From NCBI GenBank assembly GCA_963713615.1, contig CAVQMM010000001.1, forward strand, positions 3,040,001-3,104,000: a stretch of 64,000 bases of DNA, read 5' to 3'. Positions 51,337 through 60,746 of the stretch are shown here, piece by piece (position 1 is the stretch's first letter; each line of letters starts with the position of its first letter). Origin of the DNA: an uncultured Chlamydiae bacterium (GTDB lineage Bacteria > Chlamydiota > Chlamydiia > Chlamydiales > JAJFMA01). Position numbers and translations under genes: made by a program. The notes beneath the pieces were generated by a model. That model saw nothing but the letters and a program-made list of their open reading frames with translations, was not told the DNA's origin and did not search any database.

Positions 51337-52122
51337 GAAGAAATTAGAACAGATGGTCCATACTCGCCCTGCGGGTATGGACCGGGCTGGAAGGACTTCA
51401 GACGAGAAGGATCTGGGCCCGGGTGATTCTGGCCTGTTTTTAGGTGCCAACCGACTGTCGTCGGGCGGTGATGGGAGGTGCCAACCGCGTGTCGCGGGTC
51501 GGTGATGGAGGAGGTGCCAGGAGGTTGTCGTCAGTCGGTGATGGAAGGTGCCAACTCGCTGACGCCGGGCGGTGATGGAAGGTGCCAACTGCGTGTCGCC
51601 GAGGTGCCATCATCGCTGTCGCCGTACAAAAATGGTCATCGCCATTTTTAGCCATTCTAATGCCTCCCAAAAAGCCTTTGAGGTCATCAAAAAACACTAA
51701 AGACCTAACCAAAACATCCAAACATAAAAAAATGACCGACTGGGCTTGTCATGTGCCATCCCTACTACGTCGTTGGGTCGGAAAATCTAGGAAAATTACA
51801 ATTGTTGCAGATAGCGCTTTTGCTTGCTTCAAGTTTGCGCATGCCTGCATTAACCACCAGGTGAGCCTGATTTCCAGGCTTCGCTTGGATGCTAGGCTCT
51901 ATGATTTTATACCCATTAACCCAAGGGTAAAGAGGAAACGCGTCGTAGGAAAAGTGCTTCCAAAGCTATCAGTACTGGCGGAAAATCCTCTAAAAGAATG
52001 GGATGAGGCTACAGTAAGCTGGTATGGGGGTGTCACAAAAACGGTGTTTATTCAATCAGGAACGTGTCTGTGGTACTACATAGGGTTTTGTCCGGTTCCC
52101 ATTCGCTGGGTTCTAATTAAAG

Positions 52123-52282
52123 GGCCTTATTCACCTTTGCGGTCAGTTTTCGGTCGACTGCAAAAGGATCGTCTGTCGCGTTTTGCTCCTCGGACATAGC
52201 TGGCGCTATGCCCTCGTCACAAACCACGACATCCGACCTTTTTCGTCCGACCGAAATTCAGACCGTAAAGGTGAACAAGGCC
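52123..52282. mobile_element. 160-bp MITE
   Basis: TIR GGCCTT(A/G)TTCACCTTT(G/A)CGGTC and an 8-bp target duplication AATTAAAG. Confidence 0.92.
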
Positions 52283-52862
52283 AATTAAAGAAAGAGAGGA
52301 TTCAGCACCAGTTGCTCTGTTTAGTACCAACTTAAGCCACGATGCAACTCGAATAATTGAGGGATATGTGGAGCGGTGGCCCGAAGAAGTTACATTTGAA
52401 GAAGCTCGTCGTCATTTGGGCATGGAAACACGAAGACAATGGTCAGATGAAGCGATCGCGAGAACTACCCCCATAATTCTAGCGTCATTTTTAATAATAA
52501 CGTTAATGGGTTGGGAGCTTTCTCGGTCAAAAGGCGAGGAAATACGCCGCCAAAGTACATCGTGGTACAAAAAGGAGCATATTACGTTCTCAGATGTCCT
52601 AGCATACGTAAGAGAGGCCGTTATTCGAACGAAATATAGCCCTCTGGTCGGTAAAAAAGACGACCGGAGAAGAATGGATATAGAAGAATTCATCATGCAG
52701 ATGTCGGCTGCATGAAAACAGTCGTGAAACTCAAAAAATTCCTAAAGTCGAGTCTGTGTCCTCTATGGTGAAAACTCCCGATATTTTCAAGATAGCACTT
52801 GTATCAAAATAAGCATATTTGCAGTATGAGCCAAAACGTAGAGCACCTGGGGAGGAGCTATT

Positions 52863-54634: not shown

Positions 54635-56005
54635 TCAATTATATTGAAAACCGGCAATACCTGCAATATTTTTTTGAATCGCTAACCAGTTAGCTCGCCA
54701 AAGATACAAAGCAAGGTCAGCCAAATTAGAAAGGCTAAGAAAGGTCCAACATTGTTCAGGAGGCATCTCAAGGACCACTATGGCACAATACATAAGCATG
54801 TAATTCTTGATCCAACTCAACCCACCAGTAACTAAAAAAAAGTTGATGTCCTTAAATGCCAGCAAACGACTTACTGGAATGTATGCCAGGGTCCCAAAAC
54901 TAAATGACAACCATAATCCAAAAAAAACGTTCTTCAAGACACCATCAGAAAGAGATATGTCGGGAAACAATATCCGACATAGGGCCTCAGGAAATACAAG
55001 CATGGGTATCCCCAGCATCACAATGATCGTTGATATAACAAAAAATCCAGAAAGCTCCATTCTTCCCAAAAACTGAAAATTCTTTGCTCCCACGAGATTG
55101 GATGCAATCGTCGTCAAAGCCTGACAAATGGCCTCACCAATAAAGGGAAGGAAGAGACCTATAGTACTGCCCAATGACCAAATCAACAGATAGTCTCCCT
55201 GTTTTTCGATCATCAGACGAGCAATACACGCCCAACACAACACGACGGAAATACGATTCAGAGCCCTTAAAAGCCCCGGACGGATGCAGTCCCAGAAAAG
55301 CGTAGAATTAAAACGCCACTGATGCGTGCCATAGATCTGCGCATGCGCAGGAGAAAGAAAAATGCAAAAAAGGACAAGGCAAAGCCCCCCCTGTGCTACC
55401 AAATTGCTAATAGCGCCCCCAATTAGTCCTAGGGGTGGAATCCAGCCTTCTACTCCAAAAATCAACATATAGGCTAGGCATAGATTTAGCAGATTGGTTC
55501 CCAACGTAGCAAATAGGGTCAGTAACGTCTTACCTCGACCGATATAGAAACATGAAAGGCTAGTGCTCAATGGATAGAGAAAGTTGATCAACAGAAGAAA
55601 ATGGAGATAGGGCAAAGCTAATGACTCAATAGCTGTTTCTTCAAAATAAAACTCACCGAAGAGAAAGCCAAAGGGGACTACTATCAATGTCGATAGAATA
55701 GAGAACCAGATGAATTGCCAGATTGCACTTCCAATGGCTTGATCTGTCTGCGCCCCCTGATGCCTTCCAACGAAGACCTGGGCCATCATGACTAACACCA
55801 AACAGGGTGTTTGGAAGATATAGTAGACATAGACTACATTAACGGCTGCCTCTAAGGTTTCAGTAGAAAGGCGCGCAAAAAATAGCCTTTCGACGAAAAG
55901 CACGATGCTGCCGGAAAGGGTCATGAAAACTATAGGTAAAAAGAGACTGATGACTTCCCGAATTCCGCCAGTGAATTGAGACTTAGGTTGAGAAATACCA
56001 GTCAT
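54635..56005 (-). CDS. MATE-family efflux transporter
   Basis: About 12 hydrophobic segments, GGIREVISLFLP, FVERLFFARLS, FYIGRGKT and LIFGVEGWIPPLGLIGGAI. Confidence 0.92.
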   Translation of the reverse strand: MTGISQPKSQFTGGIREVISLFLPIVFMTLSGSIVLFVERLFFARLSTETLEAAVNVVYVYYIFQTPCLVLVMMAQVFVGRHQGAQTDQAIGSAIWQFIWFSILSTLIVVPFGFLFGEFYFEETAIESLALPYLHFLLLINFLYPLSTSLSCFYIGRGKTLLTLFATLGTNLLNLCLAYMLIFGVEGWIPPLGLIGGAISNLVAQGGLCLVLFCIFLSPAHAQIYGTHQWRFNSTLFWDCIRPGLLRALNRISVVLCWACIARLMIEKQGDYLLIWSLGSTIGLFLPFIGEAICQALTTIASNLVGAKNFQFLGRMELSGFFVISTIIVMLGIPMLVFPEALCRILFPDISLSDGVLKNVFFGLWLSFSFGTLAYIPVSRLLAFKDINFFLVTGGLSWIKNYMLMYCAIVVLEMPPEQCWTFLSLSNLADLALYLWRANWLAIQKNIAGIAGFQYN

Positions 56006-59000
56006 CGGCTTGCTACGTAACTGGTGATTGCTTTTTCATCCTCGTACGCACTAATGCTTTTCGCTAAATCGGTATGGAGATGATGCACCACCTCAAAACC
56101 CTCCTTTACCAGAGCTTGATAGGGTTGATAAAACAAGGGAATCACCAGCATTTCTTGGCACAGTTTTTCCTCCGCACGCATGAGATAGGAGGAGCGTAGG
56201 GAAGAGCTGACCTCCTGATCACTCAATCGCAGCCAATGCTGGAAGAAGGGGTCTTGGCAATTGGGCATATATATATTCTCCTGAGCATATCTAAAAGCAT
56301 TGAGAGTCGTAATGGGATCGTGAGTTCTAGGCCACCAAAATATTAAGCTCATTTGAAACTCTCCCTTCATCATCCTAGAAGCAATAGAGTTCCAAGGTGT
56401 TGGTACGGGATGACACTCGATTCCAAGCACCTCTTGCAATTGTTGAACTAGTTTAAAAACGATTTCTTCTCGAACCCCTCCGGGGGGATGGATGATTTGT
56501 AAGGGTCCTAGTTGATTTTTAGACATCCCCAATTCACTTAAACCCTCCTGCAGGTGCTGCTGAGCCCTTTGAATATTCTGCTGCGAAAAAAAGACCTGAG
56601 ATGGATGAGACGCATAAGGTAGAAGGGAATAAGCGGGGGTTAGCGGCAAGAACGTTTCTGCTATCATTTGTGCACGATCGATTGCAAAGGCAAAGGCACG
56701 ACGCACTTTACAATGTCGCAACAGGGGATGTACGGTGTTAAAGACAATCCAACAAACCGATGCGTTAGGAATTGAAATCTTCTGATCTCCCTGGCGAGCG
56801 GTATAGAAAGGATACCAACCTCCAAATGGATTTCCAATCCAGTCAAGTTCTCCTTTCCGAAATGCTTGAAGACCCTGATGGGGGTTAATTTGTGTCAAAA
56901 GAACCTCATCCAAAGCAACTGAGGCGGCGTCCCAGTAGGCCGGATTTTTTGAAAACCGATAGGTTTGATGGTTAGAATCATTGATTGCCAACTGAAAGGG
57001 ACCATTACATGGATAGTTATTTCCTACTTGATAGGGCCACTGAGGATACTTTTGATCTACCAGCTGATGTATAGGAGAATAGATAGGCTGGGCTGTTAGC
57101 TCCAAAAAGGAGGGGGTTGGATGAGCGAGATCGACCTTCAATGTGCGTTCATCCATTGCAAAAACCCCTACCCGATCTGGGGGAACTTTTCCCTCCTTAG
57201 CCTCCCGAGCATATTTGATAGGATAAAATAGATAAGCGAAGGCGGTTTTAAAGTCAGGAGAGAGAATCTTTTTCCACGCATATTCGAAATCACTGGCCAT
57301 GACAGAAGAGCCATCATTCCACTTGGCAGGGCGCAGTTTAAACACGTATTGTCTAAAATCTGAAGAGATGTCTATGGTTTCGGCGATGCCATTTTCCACA
57401 TCTCCATTTCTATTGATACGTGTAAGGCCTTCAAAAAGTAGCCGTAAGGTCTCACTAGAGAGGAAATCCCCGTCCACACGGGGGTCTAAGGATACCAACG
57501 CATACTCGGTTCCAATGCGCAGAATTCGTCGTTTTTTTATGATCTGATGCTTTTCGTGAAGCTCTCTTCGCAGTGTTTCTATTAAGGCTTCGCTGTCTTG
57601 GTCATGAGGTAATACACCGTGAAAAAAAAGACCTTCTGGAATATCGACAATAGTGTAGGTAAGGTCGCATCTTTGAAATTCGGGTCTTTCGATCACATCT
57701 AAGATGGTCTCCTTCCAAGATGTATTATGTCCTTGTAAGGCTAAGAAAATCTCATCTTCGTTTCTATGCGTTTCAAGTATGTAGGGAACGTCAGTCGGAA
57801 GCTTTCTATTATAACTATCCAAAAACTGCTGAAAAAGTGTTGCTAGGGTAACGCTCATGAGTAAAGCCTGCTTTTCTAACGGCGTCAACCCATAAAAAAA
57901 CGTTTCCATGAGCTCGGAATCTATTTGCGCAACCGCAGGAAAGCGCATTTTAAAGTCGTCCAATAGCTCGTGTTGCTTGATGAGGCTGCCGCCATTATAA
58001 TCGCGGAACTCGCCTATGGCAGAGCTAATGAGCGAAACGATCTTTTGCCGACTGGCATAAAAATCTAACGACCCATCCGACCTTACAAAAGAGAGCGTTC
58101 GATCGAGATGCAGACGAAAAACATGCGCTTCAATCGGATGCTCCTGCAGATGTCTTACGGTAAGGAGCCGTTCCGAAACAAAAGAACAATCTGGAGAGGA
58201 AGTAAAACACTTATGTAGGGGAAAATGACTTTTGGGGGACGCATAAACTAGAATGACGAGAAAGATCACTTCATCTCTTAGTTGCTGTTCAAAAGAAATC
58301 CATGCTTGAGGAATATCTTCTACCGAATGAATCTCTCTGCTTAAGGTGAGAATGGTTTTATACACCTCTTCCTCATTACGCCGCATGAACACCGTGGGGG
58401 CGAGTTTTTGAAAGCCTCCCCTGATCTGCTTCTCCAAATTGCTTCCTAAGCTATTGCGTTCGGTTAAAGAAAAGAGGGAGCCGTTTCTTTTTTCGATCTC
58501 AAAGTAGAGAATTTTGAGGTTTTTGTCGGGCATAACATGGAAATAGGAACTTTCCTTAACAATTTTGGCTTCAGGATGATTCTTCCGCAACACCAGAAGC
58601 ACATTTTCTTCATCGAACAGCTCATATCGGTCTGTCAGGTTAAAGCCTACTAGACACCCGAGAACAGTTTTTGATGAAAATGGAAATGACAGACGAGTAG
58701 GGATCCACTTGACTTCAAGATGACGTGCATGGGGAAAAGAGGCATAGGACCTCTGGAGGGTTTTTTGCATAAAGTGAATGGAGAGAATAAGGCGAGATAG
58801 GTGTGAGGCACTGCGATGGTCTAAAAACTTCTTGGTGGCCAGCAAGTAGAGGAGCATGAGGTCATTAAAAATGCGGTCATCTTTAAAGATAGGAAAGCGC
58901 AACTGCCACTTTTGCAAGGTTTCGTAGACTGAAAAAAAAGAAAAATGAGCAGGAATATAAACGCTTTGAGCAGCATTTTCGTCATGCGAATTCAGAGGTG

Positions 59001-59082
59001 GGCTCAACTTTATTCTTACCATGCGGGCAATGTTCTGCCGCCTGCGAAAAATTGTCAAGTCCGCTTCTTTGCGGGCGTGCAA
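56002..59082 (-). CDS. Fusion of a ~500-aa unknown N-terminal region to a family-5 (OppA-like) solute-binding domain; no signal peptide
   Basis: SLDPR...LFEGL, KWNDGS..ASDFEYAWK, CNGPF, KNPAYWD, VRRAFAFAIDR and IPLFY. The start may be the ATG at 59022. Confidence 0.88.
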   Translation of the reverse strand: MHARKEADLTIFRRRQNIARMVRIKLSPPLNSHDENAAQSVYIPAHFSFFSVYETLQKWQLRFPIFKDDRIFNDLMLLYLLATKKFLDHRSASHLSRLILSIHFMQKTLQRSYASFPHARHLEVKWIPTRLSFPFSSKTVLGCLVGFNLTDRYELFDEENVLLVLRKNHPEAKIVKESSYFHVMPDKNLKILYFEIEKRNGSLFSLTERNSLGSNLEKQIRGGFQKLAPTVFMRRNEEEVYKTILTLSREIHSVEDIPQAWISFEQQLRDEVIFLVILVYASPKSHFPLHKCFTSSPDCSFVSERLLTVRHLQEHPIEAHVFRLHLDRTLSFVRSDGSLDFYASRQKIVSLISSAIGEFRDYNGGSLIKQHELLDDFKMRFPAVAQIDSELMETFFYGLTPLEKQALLMSVTLATLFQQFLDSYNRKLPTDVPYILETHRNEDEIFLALQGHNTSWKETILDVIERPEFQRCDLTYTIVDIPEGLFFHGVLPHDQDSEALIETLRRELHEKHQIIKKRRILRIGTEYALVSLDPRVDGDFLSSETLRLLFEGLTRINRNGDVENGIAETIDISSDFRQYVFKLRPAKWNDGSSVMASDFEYAWKKILSPDFKTAFAYLFYPIKYAREAKEGKVPPDRVGVFAMDERTLKVDLAHPTPSFLELTAQPIYSPIHQLVDQKYPQWPYQVGNNYPCNGPFQLAINDSNHQTYRFSKNPAYWDAASVALDEVLLTQINPHQGLQAFRKGELDWIGNPFGGWYPFYTARQGDQKISIPNASVCWIVFNTVHPLLRHCKVRRAFAFAIDRAQMIAETFLPLTPAYSLLPYASHPSQVFFSQQNIQRAQQHLQEGLSELGMSKNQLGPLQIIHPPGGVREEIVFKLVQQLQEVLGIECHPVPTPWNSIASRMMKGEFQMSLIFWWPRTHDPITTLNAFRYAQENIYMPNCQDPFFQHWLRLSDQEVSSSLRSSYLMRAEEKLCQEMLVIPLFYQPYQALVKEGFEVVHHLHTDLAKSISAYEDEKAITSYVASR

Positions 59083-59102: not shown

Positions 59103-59133
59103 AAAAAAAAGCGGTCACCAGGTCGGTGACCGC
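59103..59133 (-). terminator. Intrinsic terminator after the 70-aa ORF
   Basis: Perfect 9-bp GC-rich stem GCGGTCACC/GGTGACCGC plus T8 on the minus strand. Confidence 0.9.
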
Positions 59134-59163
59134 TAAAACTTGTTATTTCCTACTAAAGAAAAG

Positions 59164-59376
59164 TTAGAAGGAAACAGTCATTTTTCCTTTGATGCAAACC
59201 ACTTCATCAGCTGGTATGGAATCATCTGCAAGGAAAACATCCTCGTTAACCACTGACGCTGCTTTAAAATGCTTGGCTGGAAAGGAAGGCCCAAAGGTCA
59301 ATCGTTGCAAGACCTTTAATCCCTGCCCCTCACCCTCCAACATTTCAAAAGCTAGCGAGCTTGTTGGTGCATTCAC
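59164..59376 (-). CDS. 70-aa hypothetical protein
   Basis: AGGTGGAG RBS before a GTG start, and a terminator 30 nt after the stop. Confidence 0.65.
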   Translation of the reverse strand: MNAPTSSLAFEMLEGEGQGLKVLQRLTFGPSFPAKHFKAASVVNEDVFLADDSIPADEVVCIKGKMTVSF

Positions 59377-59389
59377 AAATATTCTTCTC

Positions 59390-59897
59390 CACCTGTCCTT
59401 GTAAGGACAGCCGTAAGAGAATGCTAATTTAGGCTAAGCGAGTCTTAACAAACAATCCGAACTCCTCCAAGTTGAAATGCGTCAAGATTGTACCTCTTGT
59501 GTTACTTAGGGGTCCCCACCTTGTAAGCCGTATGGCTTTGAGGTTGCTTAAGCTGTTGCTCAGTATCATAGGATCCTTCTTCCCACTAACGTGGTTCCCC
59601 AACCGCGTTATAAGAAAGAGAGATGTCGCTAACAACTTCTATTTCGGGTCGCCCCGGCAACAGGTACCCTACCCGTTCACCGTAGCAGCATTTTTCTTAC
59701 ACGTTTCAATCTCACCGTTAAACCGCGAGGTTCAATCGATGAGCTCACTTTCTTACTCAAGACTCAATACCCAAAGTTTGTGGCTACGAGCGATAACAAC
59801 TGATGTCACCTCCTCATGTGCTCTCATGTTCCACCGTTATTGGGCTAGCACCCTCAGACAATCCAATAGGTCTTTCATATCATCTGAGGCATGATCG
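59390..59897 (-). ncRNA. Candidate large structured RNA or 5' leader
   Basis: At least seven hairpins plus nested long-range helices. G-U pairs favour the minus strand (see findings). Confidence 0.6.
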
Positions 59898-59908
59898 CGA
59901 ATTATGCC

Positions 59909-59923
59909 GCGACCTTATCGCCA
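59909..59923 (-). promoter_or_regulatory. Possible sigma54 (-24/-12) promoter
   Basis: TGGCGA-N5-TCGC has GG-N10-GC spacing and would start transcription just before the first hairpin. Confidence 0.3.
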
Positions 59924-59957
59924 CTCTAGGGCAATATAAAAAAAAAGACAAAACCTT

Positions 59958-60746
59958 TTACTGACGCAAGGATTTCTTTCGCGCTTCAATATAATCACTC
60001 AGTCCAATCTTGCCGGTTTTAAAAGTTGCGGCAACTTGTGCGAAAGCTTTCTTGTCAGCTTCGGCAATACGCTGGAGCTCCTGCCATGCCAGTAGTTCGC
60101 CTTCAGCATTATTCAATTTCTGCTGTAACGTCGCTTGGCGTAGGAGATTGCTCACGTAAAGGATATCACCAAATCCACGCGTTTGCCCTTCATGATTTGC
60201 GACTAAGCTCTCATTCATTTTCTTCGTTAGAAATTCGGAACGTTTTAGCGCCTCTGAGTCATTTCCACCGGCGATCAACAAAGATGTCTTGGAATAGTCT
60301 TCGTAAAAAGGAAGGTTTTCATTCGTGAGTTGCTTTAGCGCTTTTTGTCCATAAGTCAAGGCCATCTTCATGTCGCCTAGTCGCAAAAAGGTCTGTGCAA
60401 TTAACCCATCATAGCGGGTGCCTAACTCAGGATGACGCGATAGAACCTCTTTGAGTTGAACAAAGGCGGGGGTATTGGCTGGGTCCTTAACATCCGAACC
60501 GGTGGAACTAAATTCCCTATACGACACGGCAGCTTTGAGGTAGTCGGCTTCATCATCACCAGCGGTACGATAACTCCAGGCATACATAGCCACCAGCAGA
60601 ACAATAATGCCGACACCTGCATACAAGACGCTAGGTCCATGCTCCTGCACCCAATGGGCGAGACGATCTGCGAAGGTTTCCTGAACCAATGGTGTACCAT
60701 CACTCATCTGAACGATGCCATCGTGCTTACGCCGTTTGTCCACCAT
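59958..60746 (-). CDS. Membrane-anchored TPR-like (YfgM-like) protein
   Basis: Single N-terminal TM helix followed by helical repeats. Confidence 0.75.
   Translation of the reverse strand: MVDKRRKHDGIVQMSDGTPLVQETFADRLAHWVQEHGPSVLYAGVGIIVLLVAMYAWSYRTAGDDEADYLKAAVSYREFSSTGSDVKDPANTPAFVQLKEVLSRHPELGTRYDGLIAQTFLRLGDMKMALTYGQKALKQLTNENLPFYEDYSKTSLLIAGGNDSEALKRSEFLTKKMNESLVANHEGQTRGFGDILYVSNLLRQATLQQKLNNAEGELLAWQELQRIAEADKKAFAQVAATFKTGKIGLSDYIEARKKSLRQ

Follow-up and report, generated by a model that had tools for sequence, protein, structure and literature searches.

A conserved, apparently undescribed structured RNA of environmental chlamydiae whose core loop is complementary to the 3' tail of 16S rRNA

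In stabilisers of the STAB-SD type, a bound ribosomal subunit blocks the 5'-to-3' exonuclease RNase J, and sponge RNAs of the CsrB/RsmZ type carry many GGA(GG) motifs in loops and bind CsrA. In Bacillus, mRNAs are stabilised by strong Shine-Dalgarno sites that no start codon follows; the cryIIIA STAB-SD of Bacillus thuringiensis and the 5' polypurine stabiliser of Bacillus subtilis are both such start-less sites in a 5' leader, located before the actual start site (consulted parts of PMC3997798). OLE, a large multi-domain bacterial RNA found mostly in Bacillota, is linked to the 30S platform and carries a mimic of the Shine-Dalgarno/anti-Shine-Dalgarno duplex that binds bS21 (PMC12054373, in part). 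In Chlamydia, the structured CPn0332/ltuB-associated RNA is co-transcribed with a small ORF, lies 3' of that ORF and does not co-sediment with ribosomes (PMC3333780, in part).

We analysed a stretch of 64,000 nucleotides (G000:C1:3040001-3104000, hereafter the window) from the 99% complete genome of an uncultured chlamydial bacterium. The studied region holds a single-copy RNA of Chlamydiales, here in its long form, which lies between a promoter-like site and a mini-ORF of 47-70 aa with a terminator (Table 1). The closest functional parallel is a STAB-SD element, here set within a folded scaffold. It shares with both Bacillus elements the strong, start-less Shine-Dalgarno sequence in a 5' leader. 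Unlike them, it presents this sequence in the loop of a covarying three-helix domain within a larger multi-domain RNA, at 84-506 nt from the start codon (many relatives have a much shorter leader than the window), its host lacks RNase J, and the RNA is kept after loss of the ORF. From OLE it differs by its unpaired Shine-Dalgarno sequence and its usual position as an ORF leader, and neither the region nor eight homologous loci gave an OLE match in Rfam. The CPn0332/ltuB-associated RNA is likewise chlamydial, structured and linked to a small ORF, but it lies 3' of its ORF, did not co-sediment with ribosomes and is described from Chlamydia, whereas the loop-motif RNA was not found in 27 small, Chlamydiaceae-like genomes of family f36. 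With CsrB/RsmZ sponges the RNA shares loops that carry GGA(GG) motifs, and its long forms have more than one. Nevertheless, we rejected a sponge of that type, since only one to three motifs are present, GGGGG variants occur and no CsrA was found in the window's genome.

The literature searched contains no description of this RNA, of regulatory RNAs from environmental chlamydial families, or of a start-less docking control of this type in chlamydiae. A term search of text and supplement of the motif-discovery survey PMC8632094 gave Chlamydia pecorum as the sole chlamydial genome analysed. The main text of PMC11109978 and the consulted parts of two motif-discovery preprints from 2026 hold no chlamydial term, while unnamed clusters there could include the motif, and the consulted parts of PMC5451489 do not mention the RNA. 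The structured RNA family is real, apparently undescribed and shared, as a conserved element, by many environmental chlamydiae. In a group with few known regulatory RNAs, this new, well-supported family comes with a sharp prediction, namely that its most conserved bases pair with the 16S rRNA tail.

Table 1. Position of the RNA, its parts and its neighbours in the window, and of porin-like genes at homologous loci.
Feature	Position	Strand	Details and basis
Upstream neighbour, 262-aa protein	59958..60746	minus	ORF; one hydrophobic N-terminal stretch; weak TPR-like matches
Predicted sigma66-type promoter	59923..59951	minus	-35 TTGTCT 59951-59946; 17-nt spacer; -10 TAGAGT 59928-59923
Structured RNA region (studied stretch)	59390..59897	minus	between upstream 262-aa gene and 70-aa ORF
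Two 5' hairpins	59852..59914	minus	include 11-bp stem 59889-59852; fold, z -3.49; within-family alignment
Domain I core	59770..59844	minus	RNAalifold; pair counts
Core helix P1	59844-59840/59774-59770	minus	
Core helix P2	59834-59831/59783-59780	minus	
Core helix P3	59823-59820/59791-59788	minus	closes 28-nt loop
Loop motif GAGGAGGUGA	59806..59815	minus	complementary to 16S rRNA 3' tail; pairing table, duplex scan
Domain II	59704..59755	minus	conserved A-rich flanks; hairpin of variable length (59743-59711); z -3.11
Long-range helix P6 with lineage-specific insert	59413..59700	minus	59700-59687 with 59425-59413; z -3.04
Second GGAGG motif, small hairpin loop	59460..59473	minus	33 loci; 77-99 nt before start codon
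Hairpin P7	59393..59410	minus	directly 5' of start-codon Shine-Dalgarno site
Shine-Dalgarno site and 70-aa mini-ORF	59164..59392	minus	site 59392-59384; GTG at 59376; 55-member alignment
Intrinsic terminator-like hairpin with U tract	59103..59134	minus	similar hairpins 3' of ORF in homologues
Porin-like full genes	L177:1935-2861, L178:1546-2457, L179:1870-2745, L180-L183		families f37, f10

The upstream 262-aa gene, which is divergent from parB, has an orthologue in 166 of 201 genomes. It is the usual, not the obligatory neighbour and lies outside the RNA: the RNA also occurs away from it, and three genomes (G067, G131, G035) have the RNA with the mini-ORF downstream and no match to the upstream gene. 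A TTG..N16-18..TA pattern was found at the stop of the upstream gene in 48 loci, compared with 7 in control windows (up to 88 loci), and a consensus promoter scan did not have the predicted promoter among its listed sites. We infer a transcription start near 59917 and a single transcript of ~815 nt that runs from the promoter-like site to the terminator. The 5' hairpins vary among genomes and are missing in some, and the genes 3' of the terminator vary among families.

The preliminary description of this DNA, made from the sequence alone, had proposed that a structured RNA of several domains, so far unannotated, forms the leader of the 70-aa ORF. This reading is supported, and none of the four refutation tests set there, all of which were run, went against it. 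All seven hairpins it named are present, as are the strands of its two long-range pairs, with coordinates that are exact or within one base. As it had supposed, the structure belongs to the minus strand, where folding beats that of shuffles (z -3.21, 0/100 as good); on the plus strand it does not (z -1.14, 13/100 as good). Rfam 15 gave no match in the region at gathering score; at E<=10 only chance-level matches appeared, the best of them (E 0.12-0.64) on the terminator, and eight homologous loci were also without a match. Rfam, tRNA and tmRNA scans of the region were empty, in line with the proposed lack of a tmRNA or RNase P signature, and the genome's own tmRNA and RNase P RNA are located elsewhere. 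Protein-level conservation of the overlapping plus-strand ORF (59472-59894, 140 aa) would have counted against an RNA; this candidate was rejected, because stops interrupt every plus frame in all three relatives tested (G001, G003, G004). Neither this ORF nor an overlapping minus-strand ORF of 68 aa has a Pfam match. The covarying homologues that had been called for were found, with compensatory changes in the core helices.

Other parts of the preliminary description have to be revised. Its outer long-range helix (GUUGUU..GCU..GUAGC with GCAAC..AAGCAAC) conflicts with the core and is unconfirmed, because 59800-59783 is assigned by comparison to P3, P2 and their loops. The helix UAAGAAAGUGAG/CUCUCUUUCUUA is found in the single-sequence optimum, but homologues favour P6 as the closing helix instead. 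Most of the named hairpins lie in the insert that P6 closes, which varies in length, and those between 59682 and 59525 are poorly alignable even within the genus. The conserved core and its anti-Shine-Dalgarno-complementary loop were not named there at all.

Known RNA classes were considered as well. 6S RNA is one long rod with a central bubble; we rejected it, since no RF00013 match was found anywhere in the genome and the RNA is multi-domain and usually an ORF leader. In T-box leaders an unpaired UGGN bulge pairs with the 3' end of a tRNA and an amino-acid gene lies downstream, while here GUGG is paired in P2 with compensatory changes and the downstream gene is the mini-ORF. A leader-peptide attenuator was likewise discarded, as there is no conserved peptide and the genes after the terminator differ among families.

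Homologues were collected by several routes. A DNA search gave homologues in 6 of 61 genomes, and a profile of the mini-ORF matched in 14 of 250, whose upstream regions have one motif in common. A pattern for this motif was found in 65 of 401 genomes, compared with 8 for the reversed control. Among 67 matches examined, 59 adjoin the upstream gene and/or the mini-ORF; the other eight were left out as non-syntenic. As a guard against circularity, 95 regions behind orthologues of the upstream gene were inspected, mostly from genomes missed by the pattern: 49 had no called ORF motif, four spurious ORF-motif matches were left out, and the loop motif was present in 35 of the 42 remaining regions, the ORF occurring without it at 7 loci. 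A covariance model matched in 45 of 151 genomes, each time with a single copy, or in 42 after three weak matches (G016, G146, G028) had been inspected and removed as false. These matches cover 16/17 genomes of family f32, 11/14 of f30, 4/4 of f37 and 2/2 each of f1, f27, f38 and f46; after the removal the model found none in f36 (0/27), f5 (0/19), f8 (0/22) and f44 (0/17). In four of five f36 genomes (1.1-1.2 Mb, probably Chlamydiaceae) the upstream orthologue was found beside parB and runs almost straight into another gene, with neither motif nor mini-ORF in between. A protein search found the mini-ORF in records named Parachlamydia; therefore, cultured hosts carry it. The 30 metagenome matches have the mini-ORF in 25 cases, are cut by the contig end in 2 and lack it in 3. 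A second copy in the window's own genome was rejected, the sole other match (E 0.10) falling inside an ORF.

The core comprises 75 nt in three stacked helices with internal loops, and compensatory changes occur in all three helices. In a plain MAFFT alignment all five P1 pairs show two-sided changes (43 cells, compared with 14.2 in shuffles); P2 and P3 hardly vary in this alignment, having been fixed by the pattern. A second alignment, of 28 homologues that were not used for training, is fitted to the model and its related members are not independent. In it, two-sided changes occur at 13 of 14 pairs, and 89.7% of cells pair, compared with at most 42.5% in slid controls. Clear examples of such swaps are GUAG/CUAC, GCGG/CCGC and AUGG/CCAU in P2 and AAGC/GCUU, GGGG/CCCC and GAAC/GUUC in P3. 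In families f3, f18 and f37 the helices drift while the loop motif stays; the consensus fold of six f3 leaders reaches only -1.49 kcal/mol and does not recover the core. A small hairpin beside the loop motif (GAC-NNNA-GUC) was rejected, with 66% of cells pairing and its middle pair in 21 of 51.

The consensus of the loop, RRGGAGGUGA, is the full complement of the 16S rRNA 3' tail, which in the window's own genome ends GAUCACCUCCUUU, as read from the genome. Positions -1 to +7 can pair with this tail in 49-50 of 50 homologues that were not picked by a motif search. A is replaced by G at the three positions that face U (12, 6 and 9 cases); among 250 cells of the five positions with G opposite C there is one change, and the U facing A shows none (50 homologues). 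The position table was cut by a pattern under which six of the eight core positions admit a single base or purines only, and its related genomes are not independent. With a duplex scan that uses no such pattern, the same loci again gave sites of equal strength (-13.9 to -21.5 kcal/mol), and a site of this kind was found in 35 of the 42 syntenic loci with the ORF. Each wobble variant occurs in at least six families, and in G096 and G154 the match is longer by two or more 16S bases. The mean energy of the loop duplex is -17.0 kcal/mol, compared with -7.3 kcal/mol for the start-codon Shine-Dalgarno site of the ORF, and in the window 5.9 kcal/mol is needed to open the loop, against ~17 gained from pairing. 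Moreover, the flanking helices change in sequence while the motif stays. Neither a start codon nor a peptide is conserved after the loop motif. A genome stretch 2 kb after the 16S end, presumably 23S rRNA, resembles the motif as well (AAGGGGGUGA), but there a C run follows that is absent from the RNA. From these sequence comparisons, we consider that the loop probably pairs with 16S rRNA.

The domains downstream of the core are less uniform. A strict pattern for domain II fits only 19 of 120 loci, with changed pairs. P6 is supported by position: of 49 long leaders, 39 have the best match to the pyrimidine strand beginning 95-145 nt 3' of the loop motif, where ~16 would be expected; in the window, a fold forced to contain P6 lies 8 kcal/mol above the optimum. 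There, a near-optimal alternative fold places the pyrimidine strand of P6 over the start site. Modelling thus allows a switch between P6 and the start site; among homologues, this strand pairs weakly with the start site and to varying extents (-1.3 to -13.6 kcal/mol). The second GGAGG motif is found mainly in long forms, with all three stem pairs in a fixed register in 15 of 33 loci. P7 occurs in the same register in 53 of 76 leaders, with alternative pair types at four of its five pairs; these hairpins were picked by pairing, so their percentage of paired bases is no test. In six loci (L083, L084, L210, L237, L249, L265) the insert contains a conserved strand resembling the 16S tail, GAUC(A/G)C(C/U)UU, which could pair with the loop, in that family (f27) only.

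The mini-ORF evolves as a coding sequence: in 12 close pairs, differences by codon position amount to 148/90/241, a coding pattern of change. In the 55-member alignment an N-terminal SLA(F/L) patch and a C-terminal, beta-strand-like V.I.G.ITVSF are conserved, with a variable linker before this last strand. Among 104 called starts, 68 are GTG, 23 TTG (4 of them miscalls) and 13 ATG. The mini-protein has no match in Pfam, PDB or Atlas and no obvious signal peptide, and its AlphaFold model is of low confidence (pLDDT 59). Six f37 genomes and one f10 genome encode, at the place of the mini-ORF, a protein of 290-308 aa with a signal-peptide-like start that ends in the same strand motif. The full-length f10 gene (G015) resembles the alginate-export porin PF13372 with E 1e-5, just under the cut-off, and the AlphaFold model of the full-length porin-like protein has a pLDDT of 32. 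No full-length porin relative was found in the window's own genome. Since f37 and f10 have the full porin-like gene at the same place, the mini-protein elsewhere resembles the C-terminal, beta-signal-like strand of a porin that stands alone and is maintained by selection. Alginate-export-like porins would share with it the last-strand motif, the only strand that the mini-protein keeps. This likeness raises a second question, in envelope biogenesis.

RNA and mini-ORF are linked yet separable, and the RNA moves with the ORF when relocated. Two lineages carry the RNA without the ORF, namely G032 with the metagenome contigs L237, L249 and L265, and G058. These ORF-less RNAs retain the core, domain II and the second GGAGG loop, and promoter-like site and terminator are intact in L210, L237, L249 and L265 (f27-like) and in L100 (G058). 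A search for the mini-ORF elsewhere in G032 or G058 found none; this search was weak, its positive control reaching E 0.002.

Pieces of 59187-59834 occur in seven metatranscriptomes from seven studies, and one exact RNA contig of 439 nt spans leader and ORF. These runs were found using this very stretch and the contigs carry neither strand nor level, so they are compatible with transcription and no more, and stretches they leave uncovered are no evidence of silence. Metatranscriptome X1 holds four further exact pieces from elsewhere in the window. In the same library, an RNA contig of another organism (record 6, window 59804-59844) matches the core with 6 differences, which suggests that a second homologue is present there.

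Based on the sequence evidence, we tentatively propose, with a probability of roughly 0.4, that the loop of the core docks 30S subunits without starting translation and thereby controls stability and translation of its own mini-ORF message. P1-P3 would keep the loop open, and a 30S subunit could dock there via the 16S 3' tail with no initiation at this point. By looping out the insert, P6 might make the structural distance between the docked subunit and the weak GUG/UUG start similar in long and short forms. Once docked, the subunit would protect the RNA against nucleases and could be handed on to the GUG/UUG start when P6 has formed, while in the alternative fold the pyrimidine strand of P6 over the start site may switch the ORF off. 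Given pairing with 16S rRNA, we favour such control in cis over any other single reading, since the RNA precedes the ORF at nearly all loci and is relocated together with it. How the message would be shielded differs from Bacillus: the window's genome encodes RNase E/G and has no RNase J (TIGR00649 gave only a partial match of 21.5 bits, against a cut-off of 400), and in Escherichia coli a 5'-bound ribosome gives downstream RNA no protection (consulted parts of PMC3997798), so that protection of the Bacillus type is not directly transferable. If docking in cis is true, start-less Shine-Dalgarno control extends to an organism with RNase E and to a folded scaffold.

However, a purely cis role leaves unexplained why G032, three metagenome contigs and G058 keep the RNA without the ORF. 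Since the RNA outlives the ORF twice and RNase J is lacking, a role in trans stays in play, although we regard it as unlikely: the unit would chiefly make the RNA itself, an abundant decoy mRNA whose one or two Shine-Dalgarno loops capture free 30S subunits, with the mini-ORF as a passenger. It might park 30S subunits or guard the 3' end of 16S rRNA against RNase R, perhaps in the dormant stage, the elementary body; Shine-Dalgarno oligonucleotides protect 30S from RNase R (PMC10901742, in part). RNase R is present in the window's genome, which has two genes of the RNase R/II family. Survival of the whole unit from promoter-like site to terminator after ORF loss, with no mini-ORF elsewhere in these genomes as far as the weak search goes, the second GGAGG loop of the long forms and the RNA contigs from seven studies, albeit without level or strand, all fit a decoy. 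Against it stands that the ORF is kept in cis at most loci. Furthermore, homologues of hibernation factors are near-universal (142 of 150 genomes), with or without the RNA. The two show no complementary distribution, and we therefore rejected the idea that the RNA replaces such a factor. If true, a trans role would be a new way of storing ribosome subunits, an RNA counterpart of the protein hibernation factors, and would bear on how elementary bodies keep their translation apparatus ready.

Less probable still is a core that serves as binding site for a protein or small ligand, as in a riboswitch-like or protein-regulated leader, with an incidental match to 16S rRNA. P2, P3 and the internal loops are conserved in sequence beyond the needs of pairing, and in the window one strand can pair either within P6 or with the start site, in the manner of an expression platform. 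Yet wobble-only substitutions in the exact 16S register would then be a coincidence, and the downstream gene offers no metabolic clue. As to CsrA as the protein, one of five genomes tested has it over the cut-off and the window's genome does not, and the GGGGG variants lack the GGA of CsrA sites.

We consider it improbable that the loop is a real, sequence-independent upstream start, where ribosomes would initiate four bases after GGAGG, on AUG or a near-cognate AUN, and remodel the leader. At that offset 23 of 120 loci have AUG, 16 AUU, 8 AUC and 7 AUA, and AUG occurs at most twice at each of eight other offsets tested. However, ATG, GTG or TTG 4-11 nt after GGAGG is no commoner than at a background offset (36/120 loci each), the peptides of 1-51 codons share no sequence across the 120 loci, the window has AUC there, and full 16S pairing would leave one base before the triplet. 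Pairing of the loop with another anti-Shine-Dalgarno-like RNA, an sRNA or a strand of the same RNA, instead of 16S rRNA is very improbable. The f27 insert (up to -16.1 kcal/mol) and some terminator arms (to -16.3 kcal/mol) could serve as partners, but no internal partner exists at a common position in 55 loci (mean best -11.6 kcal/mol).

Some further observations were made beside the RNA. A CsrA homologue over the Pfam cut-off lies at G097:C1:121976-122128 (L266), the four other Chlamydiales genomes tested being without one. The minus strand of the window encodes a 1026-aa protein (56002-59082) whose family-5 solute-binding domain is confined to residues 562-934, the long N-terminal part having no Pfam match. 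Two adjacent plus-strand ORFs at 51582-52715 of the window read like pieces of a transposase, which we assume from resemblance, and positions 28-475 hold a CRISPR array with eight CRISPR-DR4 repeats at a spacing of 60 nt. Elsewhere in the genome (G000:C1:3257263-3257487), three near-identical repeats with a spacing of 112 nt lie outside long ORFs, between two tRNA-Ser genes.
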